Positions 374 through 31,707 of a stretch of 45,192 bases of DNA are shown here, piece by piece. Source of the DNA: Candidatus Moraniibacteriota bacterium (GTDB lineage Bacteria; Patescibacteriota; Minisyncoccia; Moranbacterales; GWC2-37-73). A program made the position numbers and the translations under genes. Below the pieces are notes generated by a model that searched no databases, was not told the DNA's origin, and saw only the letters and a list, made by a program, of their open reading frames with translations. Numbering within the stretch: position 1 is the first letter of the stretch; the number at the start of each line of letters is the position of its first letter. Location: contig DAIUDF010000004.1 in the NCBI GenBank assembly GCA_036845785.1, forward strand, positions 1 to 45,192, in the 5' to 3' direction.

Positions 374-435
374 ATTCATTATAATCATAATTTACCTCAT
401 TTTACTCTTTAAAAGGCAAAAATCAAGCGGAATAG

Positions 436-464
436 TTGCTATTTGGCTATTTTGATTGTAGTAT
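436..464 (+). promoter_or_regulatory. Sigma70-type promoter for the structured RNA at 471
   Basis: TTGCTA(436-441)-N17-TAGTAT(459-464). Predicted +1 is about 471, the first base of the long stem. Confidence 0.55.
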
Positions 465-470
465 TTACTT

Positions 471-650
471 GAACCCACATTTACATAAACACCGAGGTTA
501 AGCTCGCTTTTAAGTCCAATTGTGATTTGAAGCGGGCGACCTTGATGCACACAATCGGACACCTCGGTGATCTTGTGAGTGTGGGTTCCGTCGGGTCGTC
601 CACTTGAAGGAACTTCTCGGCGACTTATTAAATTAAGTCGTTTTTAATTT
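471..650 (+). ncRNA. Candidate structured ncRNA or 5' leader: long rod enclosing an H-type pseudoknot, then a terminator
   Basis: 471-498 pairs with 561-588 (28 positions, 3 mismatches, G-U pairs favour + strand). 502-510 pairs with 529-537. Loop 514-524 pairs with 550-560 (10/11). Hairpin 589-595/616-622. Terminator-like hairpin at 619-645. Confidence 0.65.
619..650 (+). terminator. Intrinsic terminator-like hairpin immediately before the ATG at 652
   Basis: CGACTTA-ttaaat-TAAGTCG followed by TTTTTAATTTT. Confidence 0.6.
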
Positions 651-651
651 T

Positions 652-4957: not shown

Positions 4958-5070
4958 GGTAGGATTCGAACAGGAAAGGGGTCGGGAAAACGTGAGTTTT
5001 CCTGGGGTGGATGTATTGAAACCGCAAGGTTTCAAGGAGCAAAGCGACGTGAGATTCCTACCGCCGGAGC
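4958..5070 (+). repeat. tRNA-tail element, copy 1 (tRNA-Asn-type flanks)
   Basis: GGTAGGATTCGAAC (inverted T-loop/T-stem) + core GAAAGGGGTCGGGAAAAC..GTTTTCC..TTGAAACCGCAAGGTTTCAA + TCCTACCGCCGGAGC (T-stem, acceptor CGCCGGA, discriminator G). Core shared with 35341-35462. Confidence 0.8.
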
Positions 5071-6074
5071 GGTGGAGTTTACTTCAAAAATTGGTGCGGG
5101 GTGAAAATCCTACCGCCGGAGCAAAGAAAATAAGGCTTAAAATCGCCTTGTTTTTTGTTTATATTTTATGATATAATTAACATCTAAAAATAATTTTGCA
5201 TGAAATATGAAAATAACTTTATTTAAAAAATGGAATCTGGCAATAAAAATAGTTCCCATTCTAATTGGGATATTTATTTTAAAATTGATATTTCATAAAT
5301 TTGGCTTTGAATACATTTCTCTCAATGCTTTGTTTACCAGTCTAATCGCGGCAACAACTTTTTTGATCGGGTTTCTTATAACCGGCGTTATTTCTGATTA
5401 TAAGGAAAGTGAAAAAATTCCCGGCGATATGGCAGCCGGACTGGAATCTATTCATGATGAAATTTATATATTAGATAAAAACAAAGGTAACGAATCTACG
5501 AAAAAATATTTGAATTTCTACAAAGCTTTTTTAAATTCAATAATTGATTGGTTTTACCGAAAAGAAAAAACTAAAAACATCCTGGTGAAACTTCATCAAA
5601 TGGATGATTATTTTTCCGAATTGGAAAGCATAATTCAGCCGAATTTTCTAGCTAGAATGAAAAATGAGCAGGGAAATATAAGAAAAATGATTATTAGGGT
5701 AGATAATATTAGGGATTTGTCTTTTATACAATCAGCTTATGCTATTGTTGAATCACTGGCCTTTTTCGTAATAACCGGGCTTCTGATTTTAAAAGTCGAA
5801 CCTTTTTATGAGGCTCTTTTCTTTACGATGTTGGTTTCTTTTCTTATGGTTTATATGATTTTTTTAATTAAGGATTTGGATAATCCTTTTGATTATTCAA
5901 AAAATGGCGAGAACGGAACAGAGGTTTCCATAAAGCCCATTTATGATTTAATTGAAAGAGTGAAAGACAATAAATGATGCGCCTTGCATTATAATGGCTC
6001 TAACATTATCTATTGAGCGGAGCATCAAAGTTTACTTCAAAAAATAGTGTTGGGTGATATCCTACCGCTGGAGC
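5065..6074 (+). repeat. Imperfect ~58 bp direct repeats (5065-5122 and 6017-6074), each ending in the tRNA 3'-end copy and bracketing one gene
   Basis: CGGAGC..AGTTTACTTCAAAAA..GGGTGA..ATCCTACCGC(C/T)GGAGC in both copies. Confidence 0.75.
5207..5977 (+). CDS. Bestrophin-like (DUF4239-type) membrane protein
   Basis: Two N-terminal TMs, a soluble helical region, two C-terminal TMs ending IKDLDNPF. Confidence 0.7.
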   Translation: MKITLFKKWNLAIKIVPILIGIFILKLIFHKFGFEYISLNALFTSLIAATTFLIGFLITGVISDYKESEKIPGDMAAGLESIHDEIYILDKNKGNESTKKYLNFYKAFLNSIIDWFYRKEKTKNILVKLHQMDDYFSELESIIQPNFLARMKNEQGNIRKMIIRVDNIRDLSFIQSAYAIVESLAFFVITGLLILKVEPFYEALFFTMLVSFLMVYMIFLIKDLDNPFDYSKNGENGTEVSIKPIYDLIERVKDNK

Positions 6075-6080
6075 TAGATA

Positions 6081-6112
6081 TTGACAAAAGCGTATCATTA
6101 CGATATGCTTTT
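6081..6112 (+). promoter_or_regulatory. Sigma70 promoter overlapped by an inverted repeat
   Basis: TTGACA(6081-6086)-N17-TATGCT(6104-6109). AAAAGCGTATC/GATATGCTTTT inverted repeat spans the spacer and -10. Confidence 0.65.
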
Positions 6113-6162: not shown

Positions 6163-6432
6163 ATGCTGCAGATACTTATTTTTGGAGGACTCGTTTTGGT
6201 GGGTTTTTTATGCGGATATTTTTTTCAAACAACAGTGCTAATTGTTCTTTCAGCCATTTTTATCGGAATCGGCATTATTTGGATGAAAAAGGCGCAAGAA
6301 ATTGAAGGCGCATTTGCATTGTTCTACTTTGTGTGTGTAATTATTGTCGATGTGGCAAAATGGGTCACATGGTATTTCATCAACGACAAAAAATTTATCC
6401 AGGAATTTTTCAAGCAGTATGTTCTGAGATAG
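6163..6432 (+). CDS. Small membrane protein
   Basis: 89 aa, three hydrophobic segments, purine-rich RBS (AAAGGG), terminator-like hairpin at 6435-6484. Confidence 0.75.
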   Translation: MLQILIFGGLVLVGFLCGYFFQTTVLIVLSAIFIGIGIIWMKKAQEIEGAFALFYFVCVIIVDVAKWVTWYFINDKKFIQEFFKQYVLR

Positions 6433-6616
6433 AGAAAAAGCTTGCCACGGAAAGCTTTCCGTCTCGGCGAGCTTTCTGTTTTTTAGGTAAATTTCAATTC
6501 AAATTCAACTAAGCTTTTCGTAATTTCTTCCCACTCAAAAGTTCAAAGTTTGTTCACCAGGGGTAGCTAGTGTCCGAAACCACTCTTTTTGAGTGGTTTT
6601 TTGATGGAAAATTAGT

Positions 6617-6660
6617 AAAAAACAAAAGGGATGGAAAGTGCTGATGCACTCTGCCATCCC
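6617..6660 (-). terminator. Intrinsic terminator for 6667..7176
   Basis: GGGATGG...CCATCCC hairpin (6628-6660) with a U-tract on the minus strand. Confidence 0.65.
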
Positions 6661-6666
6661 TTGATT

Positions 6667-7866: not shown

Positions 7867-8115
7867 CTAAAAAAGCTTTCTTATAAAAAGGACAAAACAA
7901 CAGCCATGGATTATAAGCAGAAATGCAATAATTCATGGCTGTTTTATTTTTTTGCCATGATTCGGCTTATATAAAAATTATGGTATAATTAAAATGTAGA
8001 AATTGAAATAATGCCTGTAAAAACGGATAATTGCAATAAAAAGATAAAAAATAAGTATTAAAATTATAATTTGTTGCCAAGGCGTATTAATAAGCATAAG
8101 TTTTAGAAAAAAATT

Positions 8116-9306
8116 TTGCAGCAACACACCAAAAATATCTTAATATCAGTTGTTTTTCTGATCCTGGCGGTGACTTTCGCGGGATTATTTTATCGTGTTT
8201 ATAAAGAAAAAAAAGCCTTAGAACTGGCCAAAATAGAAATGCAAAAAAGAGAACAAGAAGCGATTGCTGAACAGAAAAGATTGGCGGAAAAGAACAAAAT
8301 ACCGGAAATTCCCAAAATTATTCCGCGGCCGAAACCGAAACCGGTTTCCATGAAAAAAATGAAAACTCATGGTTGTGTGGCAGACGGGTTGCTTTCGGAG
8401 TATAATCCGGAAAATGATAATTTTATTGATCTTATCAATCGATCCAACTGCTACTATCTGCACCGCGCTTCTGAAACGTGGCTGATGCCGCCGGACTTTG
8501 CCACCATGAATTATGTCATGGAACAGATAACCAAGAAAGATATTGTTTATGGCATGTTTATTGCTGAAGCTATTGATACCCGGGCTGATTATTATAATGT
8601 GGATACGCACGAAAAATTTGATTTTGAAAAAATGTGCCGGGAAAGCAGTGAAAATGTTTGGGGGGAACATTCCTGCAAGCCGAATTTTGCCAGCGAAGAA
8701 TACCGCGAATATATAAAATACATTACCCGCAAAGCAATTGACTTGGGCGTGCAAAGTTTCACTTTCGGTCAAATTTATATGCAAGAAAGCGCCAAAAAAG
8801 ATTATGCGCCGAGAATCATTAAAGATATACGTGAATATGCTAAAAAACAGGGAGTGGACATTGTTATAGGCGCGCAAACCGGCAGCATCACGGATCCGGA
8901 ATATTTGGCGCTTTTTGATTATATCGAAGGCGGGGTGGGAATTGACAGTGAAGGCAATGTGGAAAATGGGCCTTGTCTTTCGCGCCGCGGCAGTTGCTGG
9001 GCGCTTTTGTGGCACAATGATTTTGCCAGCAAAGCTAAAAATGTTTTTTTACATCTGGACTGGTCTGGAATTCCGGATGACGACCTGGATATTTTTGCCC
9101 GCATGAACAAAGAAAAAAGATCTGAGACCATTAAAAATTTATATCAAAAATTTACTGCCAAAAATATGGGGTTTCTCATGCCTTTTATGGGAGTTTTATA
9201 TAAAGAAAACAATGGTTGTTATGGGCCAAAAAAGAGATTCTATTCTCCAGGCAATGAATATTCCTGCCAGGACGAGGATGTGATCAATAAAATAATGGGG
9301 AAGTAA
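8116..9306 (+). CDS. Membrane-anchored extracytoplasmic protein, possibly a TIM-barrel glycoside-hydrolase-like fold
   Basis: N-terminal TM, coiled coil, Pro/Lys linker, alpha/beta globular domain with paired Cys. Terminator hairpin at 9305-9337. Fold assignment is tentative. Confidence 0.7.
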   Translation: MQQHTKNILISVVFLILAVTFAGLFYRVYKEKKALELAKIEMQKREQEAIAEQKRLAEKNKIPEIPKIIPRPKPKPVSMKKMKTHGCVADGLLSEYNPENDNFIDLINRSNCYYLHRASETWLMPPDFATMNYVMEQITKKDIVYGMFIAEAIDTRADYYNVDTHEKFDFEKMCRESSENVWGEHSCKPNFASEEYREYIKYITRKAIDLGVQSFTFGQIYMQESAKKDYAPRIIKDIREYAKKQGVDIVIGAQTGSITDPEYLALFDYIEGGVGIDSEGNVENGPCLSRRGSCWALLWHNDFASKAKNVFLHLDWSGIPDDDLDIFARMNKEKRSETIKNLYQKFTAKNMGFLMPFMGVLYKENNGCYGPKKRFYSPGNEYSCQDEDVINKIMGK

Positions 9307-19639: not shown

Positions 19640-20602
19640 TTACTTTTCTTTCTCAATCTTATTCAGTAATTCTTTGACTTTCTGCACGCTGTCCCAGTCG
19701 TGTATTGAAATAGGCAAAACTTTGGAAGAAATTTTTTCCAATTTTTTTATTTTCTCATTAAGTTCTTCCGGCGAAACCATATCGGTTTTGCTGATAAAAA
19801 TATATTCCGGTTTTTCTAATAAGATTGGATTATATTTTTCTAGTTCTTTCCTGATAGTTTTATAATCTCTAACCAAATCTTCTGACTCGGCTGAAAGAAA
19901 GTGAAAAAGAGTTTTCGTGCGCTCGACATGTTTCAAAAATTTGATGCCGAGTCCTTTGCCAGCGGATGCGCCTTCAATAAGTCCGGGAATGTCAGCCAAA
20001 ATCAGACCGTAGTGAACGCCCAGGTTGGGTTCCAGCGTAGTAAATTGGTAGTTGGCCACTTTGGCGCTGGCGTTGGTTATTTCATTAAGAAGACTGGATT
20101 TGCCAACATTGGGAAGACCTACAAAGCCGACATCAGCAATAAGTTTTAGTTCCAAACGTAAATTAAATTGTTCACCCACTTGACCTTCCTCGAATTCTTT
20201 CGGGGTCATGTTAACAGAAGATCGGAATTTGAAATTTCCGCGTCCGCCTTTGCCGCCTTTGGCCACAACAATTTCCTGACCGACCTTGGTGATTTCTGAG
20301 TCTTCCTGAGTATCTAAATTGTGAATGACAGTGCCAACTGGGATTTTCACGACCAAATCTTGGCCATCCGGACCATCGCAAAACTGACCTTTGCCGTCGC
20401 GGCCATTTTCAGCTGCAACTTGTTTTTTGTAGCGAAATTGATTGAGGGCATTGAGATCGGAAACGCCCTGAAAAACGACATTGCCGCCATGTCCGCCGTT
20501 GCCGCCGGCTGGACCCAGGCTCATAAGGTTTTTGTTAAAAGCCACAGAGCCTTTGCCTCCGCAACCGGCTGTTATTTCAATTTTGACATCATCAATAAGC
20601 AT
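19640..20602 (-). CDS. obgE: GTPase Obg/CgtA (no C-terminal extension)
   Basis: Gly-rich Obg fold, LKLIADVGFVGLPNVGKSS, YQFTTLEPNLG, DIPGLIEGA. Confidence 0.96.
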   Translation of the reverse strand: MLIDDVKIEITAGCGGKGSVAFNKNLMSLGPAGGNGGHGGNVVFQGVSDLNALNQFRYKKQVAAENGRDGKGQFCDGPDGQDLVVKIPVGTVIHNLDTQEDSEITKVGQEIVVAKGGKGGRGNFKFRSSVNMTPKEFEEGQVGEQFNLRLELKLIADVGFVGLPNVGKSSLLNEITNASAKVANYQFTTLEPNLGVHYGLILADIPGLIEGASAGKGLGIKFLKHVERTKTLFHFLSAESEDLVRDYKTIRKELEKYNPILLEKPEYIFISKTDMVSPEELNEKIKKLEKISSKVLPISIHDWDSVQKVKELLNKIEKEK

Positions 20603-20723: not shown

Positions 20724-22055
20724 ATGGATGCGAAAAAGAAAAAATTCGTATGGTTTGTTGTATGGGCCCTGGTTGTGCCTGTTTTTGCGTGGTCACAACT
20801 AAGTTTTTACAAATCAGCCATGGCTGCAGATGAAGAAACTGGGGAAGTTAAGGAAAGTATTTCCGAAATTGAAGATAAAAAAGATGAAATTGAAGATGAA
20901 AAAGATGAAGTTGAAGACAAGCTTAAAAAAGAACAGAAAGCTTTGGAAAAAAAGCAGCAGGAACTTTCTCAGGTACAAGGTTCTCTCTATTACACTCAAT
21001 CTTTAATCAGCAAGACTCAGTCAGCATTAGAAGACGTAAAACAAACCATAACGCGCAAAGAATTGGAATTGGTTAATTTGGACAACCAGATAAAATTAAA
21101 AGAAGAATTGCTTAAAAGTTTTTTGCAGGAAATATATTATATAAAAAGCAAGCCGATTTTGGATGTTGTTCTGGAAGAGAAGAATTTTTCAGATATTTTT
21201 TCCAACGTTAACCATCTAATGACATTGGAGGAAAAAATTGCGGCCATTTCTGCAGATTTAGCGAAAACAAAAACTCAAATTGAACAGGACAAGGTCAAAT
21301 TGGCTGATATGAAAGAAGAACACGAAGACGTTTTGGAGCAAAAAATAGATGAAAAACAGGGTCTTTTGGCAGACAAAGCGGAAGCTGCCAGCGCTGTGGC
21401 CGAAAAAGAAGCTACAGTTGAAGAACTGCAAGCCAAACTAGCAGAATTGGAAAGCGACTTGAACGTGCTGACTGGAAAATCATTTAATGCCAAGGATATC
21501 AGGGAAGCAGTAGAATATGCCAGTGAAAAAACCGGTGTTCCTAAAGGTGTGCTCTATGGATTTTTGAAAATGGAAACAAACTTGGGTGCTAACACGGGAC
21601 AGTGTACATACAAAGAGGTGGAGAAAGTGGCGGTGGCGAGATATAAAAAATATGGATCGAAATATAAAGCTTCAATAGCGCTTCTTTATAAAAGACAAGA
21701 CCTTTTTTATGATTTAGTGGATGATTTAGGATATAGCAAAAATAAAAAAGTTTCTTGTTCGCCAAGCGGATATGTAGGCCAAGGAGGAGCTATGGGTGTG
21801 CCGCAGTTTATGTCAGATGTTTGGAATGGATATGAATCAAGCATATCTGCCAATACCGGGCATAAGACGCCGGATCCATGGGATTTGACGGATGGCGTTA
21901 TGGCAATGGCGCTCAAATTGAAAAAAGCCGGTGCCACTTCCGACAGCGCTTCGGCCATCAAAAAAGCTTCCATAAATTATTTGGGAACCTTCTATGCCAA
22001 CTATTACAATGGTATAGTATATTGGGCAAAGAATTATAAGAAATTATTTGATTAA
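20724..22055 (+). CDS. Secreted coiled-coil protein with C-terminal lytic transglycosylase (MltB/SLT-like) domain
   Basis: Signal/TM, long coiled coil, LKMETNLG catalytic Glu context, GAMGVPQFM motif. Confidence 0.85.
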   Translation: MDAKKKKFVWFVVWALVVPVFAWSQLSFYKSAMAADEETGEVKESISEIEDKKDEIEDEKDEVEDKLKKEQKALEKKQQELSQVQGSLYYTQSLISKTQSALEDVKQTITRKELELVNLDNQIKLKEELLKSFLQEIYYIKSKPILDVVLEEKNFSDIFSNVNHLMTLEEKIAAISADLAKTKTQIEQDKVKLADMKEEHEDVLEQKIDEKQGLLADKAEAASAVAEKEATVEELQAKLAELESDLNVLTGKSFNAKDIREAVEYASEKTGVPKGVLYGFLKMETNLGANTGQCTYKEVEKVAVARYKKYGSKYKASIALLYKRQDLFYDLVDDLGYSKNKKVSCSPSGYVGQGGAMGVPQFMSDVWNGYESSISANTGHKTPDPWDLTDGVMAMALKLKKAGATSDSASAIKKASINYLGTFYANYYNGIVYWAKNYKKLFD

Positions 22056-22058
22056 ATT

Positions 22059-23474
22059 ATGAAAAATAAATTTTACATTACAACTCCAATCTATTATACA
22101 AATGCCAAACCGCATATTGGTCATGCCTACACGACCATTGCTTGCGATGTGTTGGCACGCTGGAATCGTTTGCAGAATAAAAAAGTTTTCTTTTTGACCG
22201 GAACTGATGAGCATGGAATGAAAATCCAGAAAAAAGCCGAAGAAGTTGGCAAGAAGCCGCAAGAATTTGTAGATGAAATTGTTGGCGAATTTAAAAATCT
22301 CTGGAGCGCAGAAAAACTCAATATAAAATATGACAATTTTATCCGTACGACTGACGAAGCGCACATGAAAGCAGTGCAAAAGGTTTTACAAACACTTTTT
22401 GATAAAGGCGCAATATATAAAGGGGAATATGAAGGTTTATATTGTACCGGCTGCGAGCAATTTTTAAATGAAAGCGATCTGGTTGATGGAAAATGCCCTG
22501 ATCATAATGCTGTTCCTGAAAAAATGAAAGAAGAATGTTATCTGATGAAAATGACTACTATTCAGGAAGATTTAATTGGAAAAATAGAATCGAATGAATT
22601 TGAAATTGCTCCGAAAAAATATAAAAATGAGATTCTATCTTTTTTGAAGAGCCAAACCTTGAGAGATGTTTCCATATCCAGAAAGAATGTTTCTTGGGGC
22701 ATACAACTTCCTTTTGATTCTGAACACACGACTTATGTTTGGGTAGACGCTTTCTTGAATTATTTAACTGGTTTGGGCTGGGAGGGTAATGAAAAAGAAC
22801 TTCCGGAATTTTGGCCAGCCGATATAAACATGATCGGCAAGGATATTCTGCGTGTCCATGCGACAATTTGGCCGGCAATCTTGCTACATCTCGGAATTAA
22901 ACTGCCTAAAATGCTTTTTACCCATGGGCACATTCTTTCCGGGGGCAAGAAAATGAGCAAGACACTGGGCAATGTAATTACAATCGACGAAATGCTTTCA
23001 AAATTCGGAACAGACGGCACCAGATATCTTCTAATGAGCGGAGGAACATTCGGGGAAGACCTTGATTTAACTATGGAACGGATGACGGAGAAATATAATG
23101 CCGACCTCGCTAATGGACTGGGAAATTTGGTTTCACGGGTTATTAAACTTAGTGATAAGCTTAATATTAATTTAGAAGCTTCTATAGAGGCCTCTACGGA
23201 GCTGAAGAAATTTTTAGATAAATTTCAAATAGACAAAGCATTGGAATTTATTTGGGAAAAAATCAGCGAAGATAATAAATTTATTGAAGATAATAAGCCG
23301 TGGGAATTGGCAAAATCAGACGAAAAGAAATTTAGAGAAGTGATGCAAAAATTGCTGGATGACTTGGGCTTGATTTCTCAGCTACTACTGCCATTTTTAC
23401 CCGAAACAGCTGAAAAAATTCAAAAAGCGCTGGAAACAAAGCAAGTTGAGCCGCTTTTTCAAAGAATAAAATAG
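22059..23474 (+). CDS. metG: Methionine--tRNA ligase
   Basis: YITTPIYY, HIGH, GTDEHG, YVWVDA, GKDILRVH, KMSKT. Confidence 0.97.
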   Translation: MKNKFYITTPIYYTNAKPHIGHAYTTIACDVLARWNRLQNKKVFFLTGTDEHGMKIQKKAEEVGKKPQEFVDEIVGEFKNLWSAEKLNIKYDNFIRTTDEAHMKAVQKVLQTLFDKGAIYKGEYEGLYCTGCEQFLNESDLVDGKCPDHNAVPEKMKEECYLMKMTTIQEDLIGKIESNEFEIAPKKYKNEILSFLKSQTLRDVSISRKNVSWGIQLPFDSEHTTYVWVDAFLNYLTGLGWEGNEKELPEFWPADINMIGKDILRVHATIWPAILLHLGIKLPKMLFTHGHILSGGKKMSKTLGNVITIDEMLSKFGTDGTRYLLMSGGTFGEDLDLTMERMTEKYNADLANGLGNLVSRVIKLSDKLNINLEASIEASTELKKFLDKFQIDKALEFIWEKISEDNKFIEDNKPWELAKSDEKKFREVMQKLLDDLGLISQLLLPFLPETAEKIQKALETKQVEPLFQRIK

Positions 23475-23591: not shown

Positions 23592-23978
23592 ATGAAAATA
23601 GCAATCAGTGGCAATATTTATATGTTGCCGGACATCATGGAAGTTCAGGAATTGTTGGAAAAACGCAAACATAAGGTCATTCCAATTTTTAAATATCTTG
23701 ATCAGCTGGAAGAAACGAACGAAAAAAGAAAAGAAAAAAACAGGATATCTTTTTTTGATAAACTGAAAAAATGCGATGCGCTTTTGGTGGTTAATAATAC
23801 CCTGAAAAAGGGCCGGAAAAATTATATCAGCGGCAGTTCTTTTCTGGAAATGGGATTTGCGCACGCGCTGGGTAAAAAAATATTTCTGTTGCAAGGAATT
23901 CCGGAGCTGTCTTATAGGGATGAAATTATGGCGATGAAGCCTGTAATATTAAACGGTAGGTTAAGTGGAATAAAATAA
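23592..23978 (+). CDS. Nucleoside 2-deoxyribosyltransferase-like Rossmann protein
   Basis: KIAISG...CDALLVVN...YISGSSFLEMGFAHALGKKIFLL pattern. Confidence 0.7.
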   Translation: MKIAISGNIYMLPDIMEVQELLEKRKHKVIPIFKYLDQLEETNEKRKEKNRISFFDKLKKCDALLVVNNTLKKGRKNYISGSSFLEMGFAHALGKKIFLLQGIPELSYRDEIMAMKPVILNGRLSGIK

Positions 23979-24007
23979 AGAAGAGGCTCGCGTACAGACG
24001 AACCTCT
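23970..24007 (-). terminator. Intrinsic terminator of the candidate ncRNA
   Basis: Minus strand AGAGGTTCG-tctgtacg-CGAGCCTCT then TCTTTATTTTATT. Confidence 0.7.
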
Positions 24008-24272
24008 CTAATTGAATTTAATGCTTAGCCAGACCCGCGGGCTGGGAATTCGACCTGAATATTTCTACGGACACAAGCGTAGTTGAGAAGGCCTTTTTGT
24101 TGAGACGTCCTTATCCAATATCCATTCGAAACACCTCTGTACAGGTGCAGGATCTTCTAGTCTGTCGACGGCCGCGACATTGTCGCCTTTGCTAAGAGGG
24201 GAAGATTAGATTTGCCCTTTCATTCCTGCCTTAATTACAAGGCTCTCCATTGGAGACTTCATTAAATCCAAT
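23970..24272 (-). ncRNA. Candidate ~260-300 nt multi-branched orphan ncRNA
   Basis: 13-bp closing helix 24272-24260 with 24023-24011 (G-U on minus strand), at least seven internal hairpins, terminator 24007-23970, promoter TTGACA(24307-24302)-N17-AATTAT with predicted +1 at 24272. Confidence 0.7.
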
Positions 24273-24308
24273 ATATCAATAATTATTTATAAACAAAAAT
24301 CTGTCAAT

Positions 24309-25145
24309 ATGCAATTTTTCGATTCTCATGCTCACGTGAATTTCTCCGCTTTCAAAGAAGATGGGGAGGAAGTCCTCAAAAAATGCCTCGCAGAAGGCGT
24401 TTTTGTTGCGAACGTGGGTTCGCAATATTCGACCAGCCAGCGGGCGGTTGAATATGCGCGCAAATTTGAAAATGGAATCTGGGCCATTGTCGGCATTCAT
24501 CCGATTCATCTCAAAGAAGGTAGTTTTAAATACAGCGATCCTGATGAAGTTGAAGAAGTTAACATTAAAACCAAAGGCGAGGAATTTGAATATGAAAAAT
24601 ATTTAGAATTAGCCAGAGATGAAAAAGTGGTGGCGATTGGTGAAATTGGTCTGGATTATCATCATTTTGAAGAAAATGATGATGTTGAGGTTTTAAAAAA
24701 TAAACAAAAAGAAGTTCTCCGGAAATTTATTGAACTGGCGAATGAAGTCGGAAAACCGGTGATGCTCCATTGCTGGGACGCCTATGACGATCTTCTGGAA
24801 ATTCTGCAAAATAATCCAGTTGAAAAGAAAGGAATTTTGCACAGTTTTGTCGGCAGTTATAAAACAGCCAACAAATTCATTGAACTGGGCTACAAAATCG
24901 GACTTAATGGCATCATCACCTATGGTGAAAGTTATGATCGTTTGATCAAAGAAATTGATCTTCGAAACATTGTTATTGAAACCGACTGCCCATATTTGAC
25001 TCCGAGGCCGATGGAAAAAGAGAAGCGCAACGAGCCAATTTACGTAAAACTGGTGGCCGAAAAGATCGCAGCTCAAAAAAATATTTCGGTGGAAGAAGTA
25101 GCGGAAGTAACAACTCAAAATGCCAAAAAAACCTTTGGCATCTAA
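24309..25145 (+). CDS. tatD: TatD family nuclease
   Basis: DSHAH, GIHP, AIGEIGLDY, LHCWDA, LHSF, ETDCPYL. Confidence 0.95.
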   Translation: MQFFDSHAHVNFSAFKEDGEEVLKKCLAEGVFVANVGSQYSTSQRAVEYARKFENGIWAIVGIHPIHLKEGSFKYSDPDEVEEVNIKTKGEEFEYEKYLELARDEKVVAIGEIGLDYHHFEENDDVEVLKNKQKEVLRKFIELANEVGKPVMLHCWDAYDDLLEILQNNPVEKKGILHSFVGSYKTANKFIELGYKIGLNGIITYGESYDRLIKEIDLRNIVIETDCPYLTPRPMEKEKRNEPIYVKLVAEKIAAQKNISVEEVAEVTTQNAKKTFGI

Positions 25146-26796: not shown

Positions 26797-26855
26797 GCAG
26801 TTTGTAGTTCATGGTTCGTAGTTTGTAGACTGCGGACCAAAAACTGCGAATTGGA

Positions 26856-27050
26856 ATTTTCTCCACTTTTCTTTTACACAAAAGAAAAGTGGAAGAAAAG
26901 AAAACTTCGCACCCAGATGAAGTGCTGTGGAAAATTCTAAGCTCACTCGCTAAAATTTACACTTCGCTTCGCTACGTTTCAAAATTTTTTAACGCTCACT
27001 CGCTTGAATTTTCTTACGCACTTCATGGGGTGCGGAAAATACGAAAATTC
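26856..27050. repeat. Dispersed MITE-like repeat, copy 1 (3'-truncated)
   Basis: TCCACTTTTCTTTT-acac-AAAAGAAAAGTGGA hairpin and following ~70 nt nearly identical to 31441-31530. Confidence 0.8.
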
Positions 27051-27975: not shown

Positions 27976-27983
27976 AAGAATTT

Positions 27984-28009
27984 GTCATTCCCGCGAAAGC
28001 GGGAATCCA
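27984..28009. repeat. REP/dRS3-like palindrome
   Basis: GTCATTCCCGCGAAAGCGGGAATCCA fits ATTCCC-N8-GGGAAT. Confidence 0.75.
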
Positions 28010-28010
28010 G

Positions 28011-28306
28011 AAAGTTTTTTGAAATTCGTATACTAACTTTTCTTTCTAGAAAGAAAAGTTACAAAAGAAAGTCGCGCCAGGATGAAGATACTGTGGCAAG
28101 CGCTTCGTTCTTCGCTAAATTTTCTATTTCGGGCTCAGAGAAAATTTTTAACGCTCATCACTCGCGCTTTGTCCGCCTCGGCGAGCCTCGAGCGAGACGG
28201 GCCTACGTACTTCATATGGCGCCCTTGAAATGCGGAATGCAAATTCAAAAATGCAATTCAGGGTTTAATTGATTAAAAATTAAGCACTGATAGTACTTTT
28301 GAAAAA
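28011..28306. repeat. Dispersed MITE-like repeat, copy 2
   Basis: Starts AAAGTTTTTTGAAATT and ends CTGATAGTACTTTTGAAAAA. A 35-nt block at 28236-28270 is identical to 31642-31676. Confidence 0.8.
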
Positions 28307-28361
28307 ACTGCCGGCTTATTTAGATAGTTAAGCACGGCAGTCAATTAAAAAATTGGATGAT

Positions 28362-28664
28362 TTAGGATTTATAAAACTGTACAGCTATCCATACGTCAGT
28401 ATAAAATCCTGATGGAAATTTTGTTTTGTTGGTTAAGTTATATTCACCAAATAGTACGGCAGTAGCTTTTTCAAGAGAGAATTTGCTTAATTGTCTTTTT
28501 TGTATTATTTCAATTGCTTTTTTCTGGACAATTTCTTGATTAGGCTTTATATCTACCCACTCTCCTTTAATGTTAGAATTATCCCATTCACAGTCTTCAA
28601 TGGAAAAATTTAACAGTTTTGGTTTTCCAACAGGTTTTCCTTGAGGATTAATAAGTATTTTCAT
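28362..28664 (-). CDS. Hypothetical protein, antisense cargo inside the atp operon
   Basis: 100 aa, SD AAAGGAG, own promoter TTGACA(28753-28748)-N17-TATACT(28730-28725). Confidence 0.8.
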   Translation of the reverse strand: MKILINPQGKPVGKPKLLNFSIEDCEWDNSNIKGEWVDIKPNQEIVQKKAIEIIQKRQLSKFSLEKATAVLFGEYNLTNKTKFPSGFYTDVWIAVQFYKS

Positions 28665-28855
28665 AATATCTCCTTTTGTTAAAGAAATTTTTGTTTAATA
28701 ATTGTGATAAATTATCAACTTAATAGTATATTTTAGAATAAACAAAATGTCAAATATATATGCGGTTAAATTATTAATAAGTTCACGAGTTCACGAGTTT
28801 TTAAAATAACGCGTTAACCCGTTAACACTTTAATAAAGAATAATATAATAATATT

Positions 28856-31423: not shown

Positions 31424-31707
31424 AAAGTTTTTTGAAATTAATTCTCCACTTTTCTTTTACGCAAAAGAAAAGTGGAAGAAAAGAAAACTTCGCACGCGGA
31501 TGAATTTCTGTGGCAAATTCTAAGCTCGTTCGCTAAAAAATCTAACTCGTCCCGCCAAGGCGGGACTCAGACAGAGATTTTTCTTAACGCTCATTCGCTT
31601 GAATTTGCTGACGAAATTCATAGTGTGCGGGAAATGCAAGAAATGCAAATTCAAAAATGCAATTCAGGGTTTAATTAAAATTAAATTCTGATAGTACTTT
31701 TGAAAAA
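31424..31707. repeat. Dispersed MITE-like repeat, copy 3
   Basis: Same left and right ends as 28011-28306. 5' half matches 26856-27050. Confidence 0.8.

Follow-up and report, generated by a model that had tools for sequence, protein, structure and literature searches.

A candidate orphan structured RNA gene in the orf128-tatD spacer of a Moranbacteria genome

The orf128-tatD spacer and its predicted transcription unit

The DNA analysed here (45,192 nt, hereafter the window) is a chromosome segment of a member of the Moranbacteria, within the Patescibacteria or candidate phyla radiation (CPR), known from anaerobic-digester metagenomes as a metagenome-assembled genome; the identical sequence is found as contig JAKQKH010000078.1 of assembly GCA_029560755.1. 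Our subject is the spacer between orf128, a gene for a protein of 128 amino acids, and tatD, where a candidate gene for a structured small RNA (sRNA) lies on the minus strand (Table 1). The genes that flank the spacer are all on the plus strand. The original prediction, made from the sequence alone, had placed the RNA between metG and tatD; tatD is indeed its right-hand neighbour, but on the left orf128 intervenes and had been overlooked. Comparison with relatives indicates that orf128 is a genuine, conserved plus-strand gene. Its product shares 83% identity (94% positives) with the orthologue in the nearest relative, in which the minus-strand translation of the same stretch is broken by 8 stop codons. 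The Pfam match of orf128 is weak, nucleoside 2-deoxyribosyltransferase-like and below the cut-off (E 9e-4), and a minus-strand open reading frame (ORF) of 165 amino acids that overlaps it has no Pfam match. Since orf128 is real on the plus strand, no minus-strand gene lies downstream of the RNA unit, which bears out the earlier claim that there is no same-strand gene for it to regulate.

Of the 30 intergenic regions that the window contains, the spacer is both the longest (330 nt) and the most GC-rich, with a GC content of 0.43 against a median of about 0.27 for intergenic regions and 38% for the whole window. In relatives the spacer at this site usually measures about 100-115 nt, a third of the length found here. 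A long GC-rich spacer in an AT-rich genome is a classic signature of structured-RNA genes, and neutral DNA in a CPR genome, streamlined and biased towards AT, is expected to be short and AT-rich. The spacer contains no ORF longer than 32 amino acids, as had been anticipated, and showed no similarity by blastx to 3,919 ORFs from related loci. An origin from a decayed gene was rejected on the latter ground; the GC enrichment also speaks against a decayed native gene.

The minus strand of the spacer carries a predicted sigma-70-like promoter; a single base separates its -35 box from the start codon of tatD (24309, opposite strand). The promoter places the predicted +1 at approximately 24272, the base at which a 13-bp helix that would close the RNA begins, and a predicted intrinsic terminator begins two bases past the 3' arm of this helix, with the orf128 stop codon sitting under its U-tract. 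An A-tract lies on the other side of the terminator hairpin, and the terminator is thus potentially bidirectional, judging by its flanking A-tract and U-tract. The two arms of the closing helix form an inverted repeat (I2) that is 92% complementary as DNA, its lone mismatch becoming a G.U pair in the minus-strand RNA. Promoter, +1, helix and adjoining terminator are all located exactly as the original prediction had described them. Of the hairpins that it had listed within the helix, these recur in the predicted minimum free energy (MFE) fold: UCUCC/GGAGA, GCCUUG/UAAGGC, GCGAC/GUCGC and GCACCU/AGGUGU with P 0.90-0.98, together with CCAG-CC/GG-CUGG (P 0.71) and CUACG/CGUAG (P <0.5). The stem of the predicted three-way junction is made up of UUCGA/UCGAA plus UGGAUAUU/AAUAUUCA, and a tandem 14-nt motif, AAGGNCNUCUCAAC, occurs twice in this domain (direct repeat D1). 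The layout of an sRNA gene (promoter, 5' end, intrinsic terminator and no ORF, all on one strand) is therefore present at the level of consensus matches only.

Table 1. Positions of the genes around the spacer and of the predicted features within it.
Feature	Position	Strand	Details
Obg gene	19640-20602	minus	
SLT transglycosylase gene	20724-22055	plus	
MetRS gene (metG)	22059-23474	plus	
128-aa gene (orf128)	23592-23978	plus	
330-nt spacer	23979-24308		between orf128 and tatD
TatD gene	24309-25145	plus	followed by F-type ATP synthase (atp) operon
Sigma-70-like promoter	24307-24279	minus	-35 TTGACA 24307-24302; 17-nt spacer; -10 AATTAT 24284-24279; 10/12 match
Structured RNA core, 262 nt	24272-24011	minus	predicted +1 to end of closing helix; MFE -76.5 kcal/mol
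Closing helix, 13 bp	24272-24260 / 24023-24011	minus	12 Watson-Crick pairs + 1 G.U; P 0.95
Closing helix, 5' arm AUUGGAUUUAAUG	24260-24272	minus	one arm of inverted repeat I2
Closing helix, 3' arm CAUUAAAUUCAAU	24011-24023	minus	other arm of inverted repeat I2
5' hairpin UCUCC-AAU-GGAGA	24256-24244	minus	P 0.97
5' hairpin GCCUUG-UAAU-UAAGGC	24243-24228	minus	P 0.98
Predicted long-range helix, 6 bp	CUUAGC 24196-24191 / GCUAAG 24029-24024	minus	P 0.64; encloses 3' domain
Hairpin GCGAC-AAU-GUCGC	24186-24174	minus	P 0.90
R-like 12-mer GUCGACAGACUA	24169-24158	minus	in largely unpaired junction of ~20 nt
Hairpin GCACCU-GUACAG-AGGUGU	24148-24131	minus	P 0.93
Predicted three-way-junction domain	24130-24049	minus	interrupted 13-bp stem around two hairpins; P 0.75-0.80
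Hairpin CUACG...CGUAG	24082-24065	minus	in MFE fold, P <0.5; within three-way-junction domain
3' hairpin CCAGCC-CGCG-GGUCUGG	24045-24029	minus	P 0.71
Intrinsic terminator	24008-23971	minus	11-bp stem 24008-23981 (5 G-C pairs); 6-nt loop; U-tract CUUUAUUUUA

The two strands of the spacer differ in how well they fold. Significance was expressed as z against dinucleotide shuffles (500 for the 262-nt core), and for the core the minus strand reached z = -2.14, with 13 of the 500 shuffles (2.6%) folding as well, against z = -0.80 for the plus strand; with the terminator included the values were -2.98 and -1.18. Moreover, 7 of the pairs in the MFE fold are G.U, and since each would turn into an A.C mismatch on the plus strand, the fold is specific to the minus strand. 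The composition of paired and unpaired bases, compared with shuffles, added no signal. By our own estimate a stretch of 330 nt should contain an inverted repeat such as I2 (12 Watson-Crick pairs plus one G.U) only about 0.006 times. What stands out most from randomness is the outlying length and GC content of the spacer, its terminal inverted repeat of 13 bp and the way in which promoter +1 and terminator bracket the helix exactly. Chance is exceeded only in part, the excess being moderate, and the case rests on the combination of features.

Taken together, these features lead us to favour a species-specific orphan structured sRNA gene on the minus strand of the orf128-tatD spacer, independently transcribed, a reading to which we give about half of our credence. 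Of the standalone, multibranched RNA of approximately 260-300 nt that had been proposed, the features of the unit are in place (a 262-nt core, or about 300 nt with the terminator), while the RNA itself is plausible but unproven. The same interval, 24011-24272, contains ten 6-bp palindromes, 8 of which include G or C (CCGCGG, GAATTC, AGGCCT, GACGTC, TTCGAA, TGTACA, GTCGAC and CGGCCG); 8 such palindromes per 262 nt is in the top 0.6% of windows, for which the mean is 2.3.

Known RNA families

At the gathering threshold, a search of the whole window with Rfam 15 returned a tRNA-Leu elsewhere and nothing at the locus. When the 601-nt locus and the 274-nt RNA alone were searched on both strands at E<=10, only junk matches were found and none was to a group I, RNase P, tmRNA, SRP, 6S, raiA, HEARO or small-ribozyme model. 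The element can thus be called uncatalogued, as the original prediction had put it, and the families it had singled out for an Rfam scan (group I, RNase P, tmRNA, 6S and raiA) all came back empty. CPR RNase P RNAs have been reported to fall below Rfam thresholds, with recovery by RF00010 once the bit-score threshold was lowered to 5 (PMC8172020); here RF00010 and RF00011 gave no match at E<=10, although a score as low as 5 bits is still possible. No rnpB or other Rfam RNA was found within 10 kb beyond each end of the window. With default settings ARAGORN made no tmRNA or tRNA call on the RNA above noise; relaxed settings gave a tRNA-Gly-like call at 24133-24201, but also 18 false calls in the 45-kb window.

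Six hallmark motifs were scored by their best match against shuffles, the percentages being uncorrected for multiple motifs. RNase P, tmRNA and SRP hallmarks, which had earlier been reported as missing, all scored at chance: CR-I (GAGGAAAGUCC) at best 7/11 (92% of shuffles as good), CR-V (ACAGAAnnnGGCUUA) at chance level (99%), the SRP motif likewise (99%), and the tmRNA T-loop at best 8/11 (26%). The group I S element reached 8/12, a chance-level score (63% of shuffles as good) that agrees with the earlier statement that a canonical S element is missing. The 12-mer GUCGACAGACUA, which the original prediction had matched to the Tetrahymena R element, is indeed identical to it at 10/12 positions by reading. 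The match is marginal: over the longer R-like element the best score is 11/15, and 31 of 1000 shuffles (3.1%) do as well or better. The GUCGACAGACUA string was also found by chance in unrelated coding DNA.

A closer inspection of the topology did not uphold the group I intron-like or degenerate-ribozyme reading that had been built on this match. The putative P3-P7 interval, where P4-P6 should lie, is only 35 nt long (RNA 73-108) with a single 5-bp hairpin, so that a domain of P4-P6 size is missing. At the place of J8/7 there are about 95 nt, the candidate 3' strand of P7 lying 95 nt past the P8-like hairpin against the approximately 6 nt expected. Neither 5' hairpin pairs a 5'-strand U with G as a U.G-bearing P1 would. 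Moreover, the element sits between two genes, orf128 and tatD, rather than in a host gene that could supply exons. With no RF00028 match at E<=10, only the R-like 12-mer resembles a group I intron while both covariance model and topology fail, and a group I intron was rejected.

Relatives, homologues and background rates

Several observations weigh against an sRNA gene at this locus, among them those from relatives. The comparison covered 64 TatD-anchored loci from GTDB species representatives, 48 of them Moranbacteria-like (L001-L048, TatD 50-78% identical), and neither nhmmer nor blastn found a match to the RNA in any of the 64. In the 45 Moranbacteria-like loci with enough flank, the spacer upstream of tatD measures 0-211 nt and the RNA is absent. 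The nearest relative (TatD 83% identical), with the gene order SLT-(NUDIX)-metG-orf128-tatD as in the window, has an unrelated, AT-rich spacer of 115 nt and no RNA. A relative with 78% TatD identity keeps the order Dus-holin-Obg-SLT-metG-orf-tatD-atp around a 100-nt spacer, and the RNA is absent within +/-10 kb. The original prediction had named a lack of conservation in relatives as grounds for refutation, and such a lack is what some 50 related Moranbacteria that share the gene order show. These comparisons suggest that the RNA is either a lineage-specific gain at this site or has been lost everywhere else. Contigs of the same species (JGI, ENA, Logan and NCBI) are 100% identical over the RNA and at least 99.94% identical overall; they are essentially clonal and therefore hold no population signal.

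Searches outside the relatives, made with exact seeds and with small fetched parts of related genomes, did not change this picture, although diverged homologues may exist elsewhere. A metagenome scan with a transition-tolerant 22-nt pattern from the unpaired junction (YRYYGACAGACTAGAAGAYYYY) gave 9 matches, all due to chance and mostly in DNA that looks coding, with the motif translating as D-R-L-E-D, in a collection that evidently does not contain the source contigs. Five scans of viral contigs, with four internal 17-mers and a pattern of terminal inverted repeat (TIR), gap and TIR, returned chance matches of seed length or none. Distant blastn searches of phage and plasmid collections yielded nothing meaningful, and the 65 kb of the genome read (the window and 10 kb on either side) contain no second copy. 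As no homologue was found, neither an alignment nor a covariation analysis is possible; homologues with compensatory changes, which define a conserved class of RNA, were found neither among the relatives' loci nor in the collections searched.

The background rates also count against the unit. Promoter-like sites are at background frequency (4 found against 3.4 expected in 1.4 kb), which leaves the promoter match suggestive through its position only, and so are terminator-like matches (2 against 1.2). The z of the fold is modest, and four other spacers of the window are far more significant (z about -4 to -7).

A further contig, L081, comes from a 99%-identical strain and ends 6 nt upstream of tatD, so that it cannot show the RNA. 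These 6 nt, TAAATT, resemble the AAAATT of an RNA-less relative and differ from GTCAAT, part of the -35 box, in the window. The first tatD codons differ too (MYFDSH against MQFFDSH; L081 1-11 against window 24303-24316). This is a weak hint that presence of the insert could be polymorphic between strains, and there may be a strain-level breakpoint in L081 at the edge of the RNA locus.

Alternative explanations

The background rates speak for a structure that arose by chance, in a fast-evolving spacer with promoter-like hexamers, an inverted repeat and a real bidirectional terminator for orf128 but no RNA product. We regard this as unlikely but to be reckoned with, since the fold of the core is reached by 2.6% of shuffles, many 6-bp complementarities are expected in 262 nt by our own calculation, and nothing at the locus is conserved. 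Against chance stand a spacer of triple the usual length that is also the GC outlier of the window, where neutral CPR DNA should be short and AT-rich, and a 13-bp repeat as rare as I2. A second alternative is a relic of mobile or foreign DNA, that is, a 262-bp insert, horizontally acquired or resembling a miniature inverted-repeat transposable element (MITE), whose helix represents TIRs and whose hairpins have no function at the level of RNA. The insert is restricted to one lineage, with gene order kept around short, unrelated, AT-rich spacers in the nearest relatives; its terminal repeats of 13 bp are 92% complementary; its GC content (0.43-0.48) lies above that of the genome; and its G/C-containing palindromes are unusually dense. 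The L081 junction, TAAATT, hints at a presence/absence polymorphism, and about 5-9 kb ahead of the window start there is an integrative element with a serine recombinase. Against this, the insert is present in single copy in the 65 kb of genome read, has no target-site duplication (the flanks are ...TGATAT and TAGAGA...) and has no copies in the phage, plasmid, viral or metagenome searches. A passive relic moreover leaves unexplained why the mismatch in the helix is a G.U on the minus strand and why promoter and terminator bracket it exactly, and we consider such an origin unlikely, slightly more so than chance.

That both flanking genes are on the plus strand, and in relatives are probably co-transcribed, raises the question whether the element belongs to the plus strand instead, as a structured leader or an intercistronic part of an orf128-tatD mRNA, where it would serve, for instance, as a riboswitch, a processing site or a stabiliser. 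The hairpins could largely form on either strand, and the terminator hairpin comes directly after the stop codon of orf128. However, the plus strand does not fold better than its shuffles do (z -0.8 to -1.2), and the G.U pairs turn into A.C mismatches there; the plus strand has no promoter-like site, no expression platform beside the tatD start and no Rfam match, and no relative examined has the element upstream of tatD. This explanation is very unlikely. Least probable of all, with only a slim chance of being right, is a highly diverged member of a known family, either a degenerate group I-like ribozyme or a reduced RNase P RNA of the CPR kind. For the former there is the R-like GUCGACAGACUA (10/12, or 11/15), and P7-like (RNA 109-114/238-243), P3-like (67-72/116-121) and P8-like pairings can be drawn by eye; for the latter, size, closing helix and standalone layout would suit, and CPR forms are known to fall below Rfam thresholds (PMC8172020). 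Yet the isolated RNA matched no RF00028, RF00010, RF00011 or other ribozyme model at E<=10, the CR-I, CR-V, S, SRP and tmRNA motifs are all at chance, and ARAGORN found nothing above noise. The group I topology is spoilt by 35 nt with one hairpin at the place of P4-P6 and 95 nt at that of J8/7, and there is no host gene. An essential RNase P RNA should resemble that of relatives, and nothing similar was found in the small parts of their genomes searched.

Proposed mechanism and significance

If the spacer does hold an independently transcribed sRNA gene, transcription would start at about 24272 from the sigma-70-type promoter and stop at the terminator, and the core of approximately 262 nt would fold into a multibranched structure with its 5' and 3' ends clamped by the 13-bp helix. 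As the gene would fill the whole spacer in antisense between co-oriented genes, its transcript would be perfectly complementary to any metG-orf128 read-through that enters tatD and the atp operon. The spacer showed no promoter-like site on the plus strand, so tatD is plausibly expressed by such read-through, against which the sRNA promoter would fire head-on while the hairpin terminator could act in both directions. A cis-antisense and insulator element for tatD-atp expression is therefore the most concrete mechanism that we can propose. A GC-rich, clamped fold of many hairpins exceeds what antisense action needs, which suggests a stable RNA that may have an added role in trans, for example in protein binding.

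A bolder possibility, which we hold to be quite unlikely, is that the locus is the first sighting of an undescribed class of RNA, about 260 nt long, complex in fold and clamped at its ends, possibly catalytic or with a dedicated protein partner, which one Moranbacteria lineage gained recently and whose relatives are too diverged or too poorly sampled to be recognised. Large structured RNAs without an assigned function are rare and have repeatedly been a source of new biochemistry. CPR genomes are small and streamlined, and a 330-nt spacer that is given over to RNA rather than protein would probably be useful to the episymbiotic lifestyle. The locus is also a cautionary case, in that a 10/12 motif match and a hand-drawn fold failed tests by covariance model, shuffling and synteny.

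Other elements in and near the window

Just upstream of the window start, in the same genome, a block of minus-strand genes lies between rpoD and the window (contig L100, 1719-9728). Its products are a large serine recombinase, a DnaG-zinc-ribbon protein, a DUF5659 protein and several hypothetical proteins; the block probably represents an integrated mobile element or the remnant of a prophage. Bordering this element is a 263-nt spacer (389-651, plus strand; GC 0.40) that folds as a long irregular hairpin with an internal junction (z = -6.97, with 0/200 shuffles as good) and has no Rfam match.

Further structured stretches were found elsewhere in the window. The leaders of two adjacent plus-strand genes (5040-5160 and 5990-6090) share an element of approximately 85 nt that is 76% identical overall and contains two boxes of the AUCCUACCGCCGGAGC type; in the first leader a terminator-like hairpin with a U-run comes next. 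The genes behind these leaders lie at 5207-5977, with a faint bestrophin-like match, and at 6163-6432 (89 aa). With a fold z of -4.94 and no Rfam match at E<=1, the shared element makes a candidate for an unclassified cis-regulatory RNA or a riboswitch. The spacer of a convergent gene pair at 6433-6666 has four strong hairpins on both strands (z about -6.8) and probably holds stacked or bidirectional terminators. At 7894-7948, upstream of a 396-aa ORF at 8116, there is a near-perfect plus-strand hairpin of 21 bp (AAAACAACAGCCATGGATTAT / ATAATTCATGGCTGTTTTATT) in a spacer whose plus-strand fold has z = -4.9. In the atp operon, a 107-nt direct repeat, about 90% identical, is found at 26851-26955 and 31432-31538, one copy lying over the atpF start and the other just past atpG at the start of a 68-aa ORF. 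Lastly, about 880 nt between atpH (OSCP) and atpA (27976-28855) contain no more than short ORFs that lack support (plus strand, 96 aa; minus strand, 100 aa), and the relative with 78% TatD identity has a gap of 698 nt at the same place.

Comparison with known systems

With group I introns (RF00028) the locus shares a multi-helix RNA of about 250 nt and an R-like (P7/P3') 12-mer that is followed by a hairpin in the position of P8. Unlike them, it has no covariance-model match, S element, P4-P6-sized domain or U.G-bearing P1, does not lie in a tRNA, rRNA or protein gene, and carries a promoter-like site and terminator of its own. Bacterial RNase P RNA (RF00010) is likewise a standalone gene whose paired ends form a P1-like helix, and the smallest bacterial forms are close in size; the locus differs in having neither the CR-I/CR-V P4 core nor the P2/P3/P4 pseudoknot topology, no covariance-model match at E<=10 and no similar sequence in approximately 0.75 Mb of related loci. 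The locus recalls MITEs in being a unit of 262 bp that is bounded by inverted repeats of 13 bp and confined to one lineage, relatives lacking it at the orthologous site, but there is no target-site duplication, and the unit is in single copy in 65 kb with no related copies found elsewhere.

Screens of intergenic regions (IGRs) by GC content and length flag structured non-coding RNA (ncRNA) candidates in AT-rich bacteria (PMC8632094, PMC11109978). Whereas the published motifs from GC-rich IGRs are defined by multiple covarying homologues, this locus has no detectable homologue and so makes no motif or class as yet. With the orphan ncRNA candidates from GC-rich IGRs of AT-rich bacteria it shares a long GC-rich spacer, a promoter-like site, a terminator and a multi-hairpin fold without an ORF. 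Typical antisense RNAs have no need of so elaborate a GC-rich, end-clamped fold. However, in the manner of cis-antisense RNAs and bidirectional terminators, the unit opposes both of its neighbours, covers the intercistronic region and ends in a hairpin between an A-tract and a U-tract.

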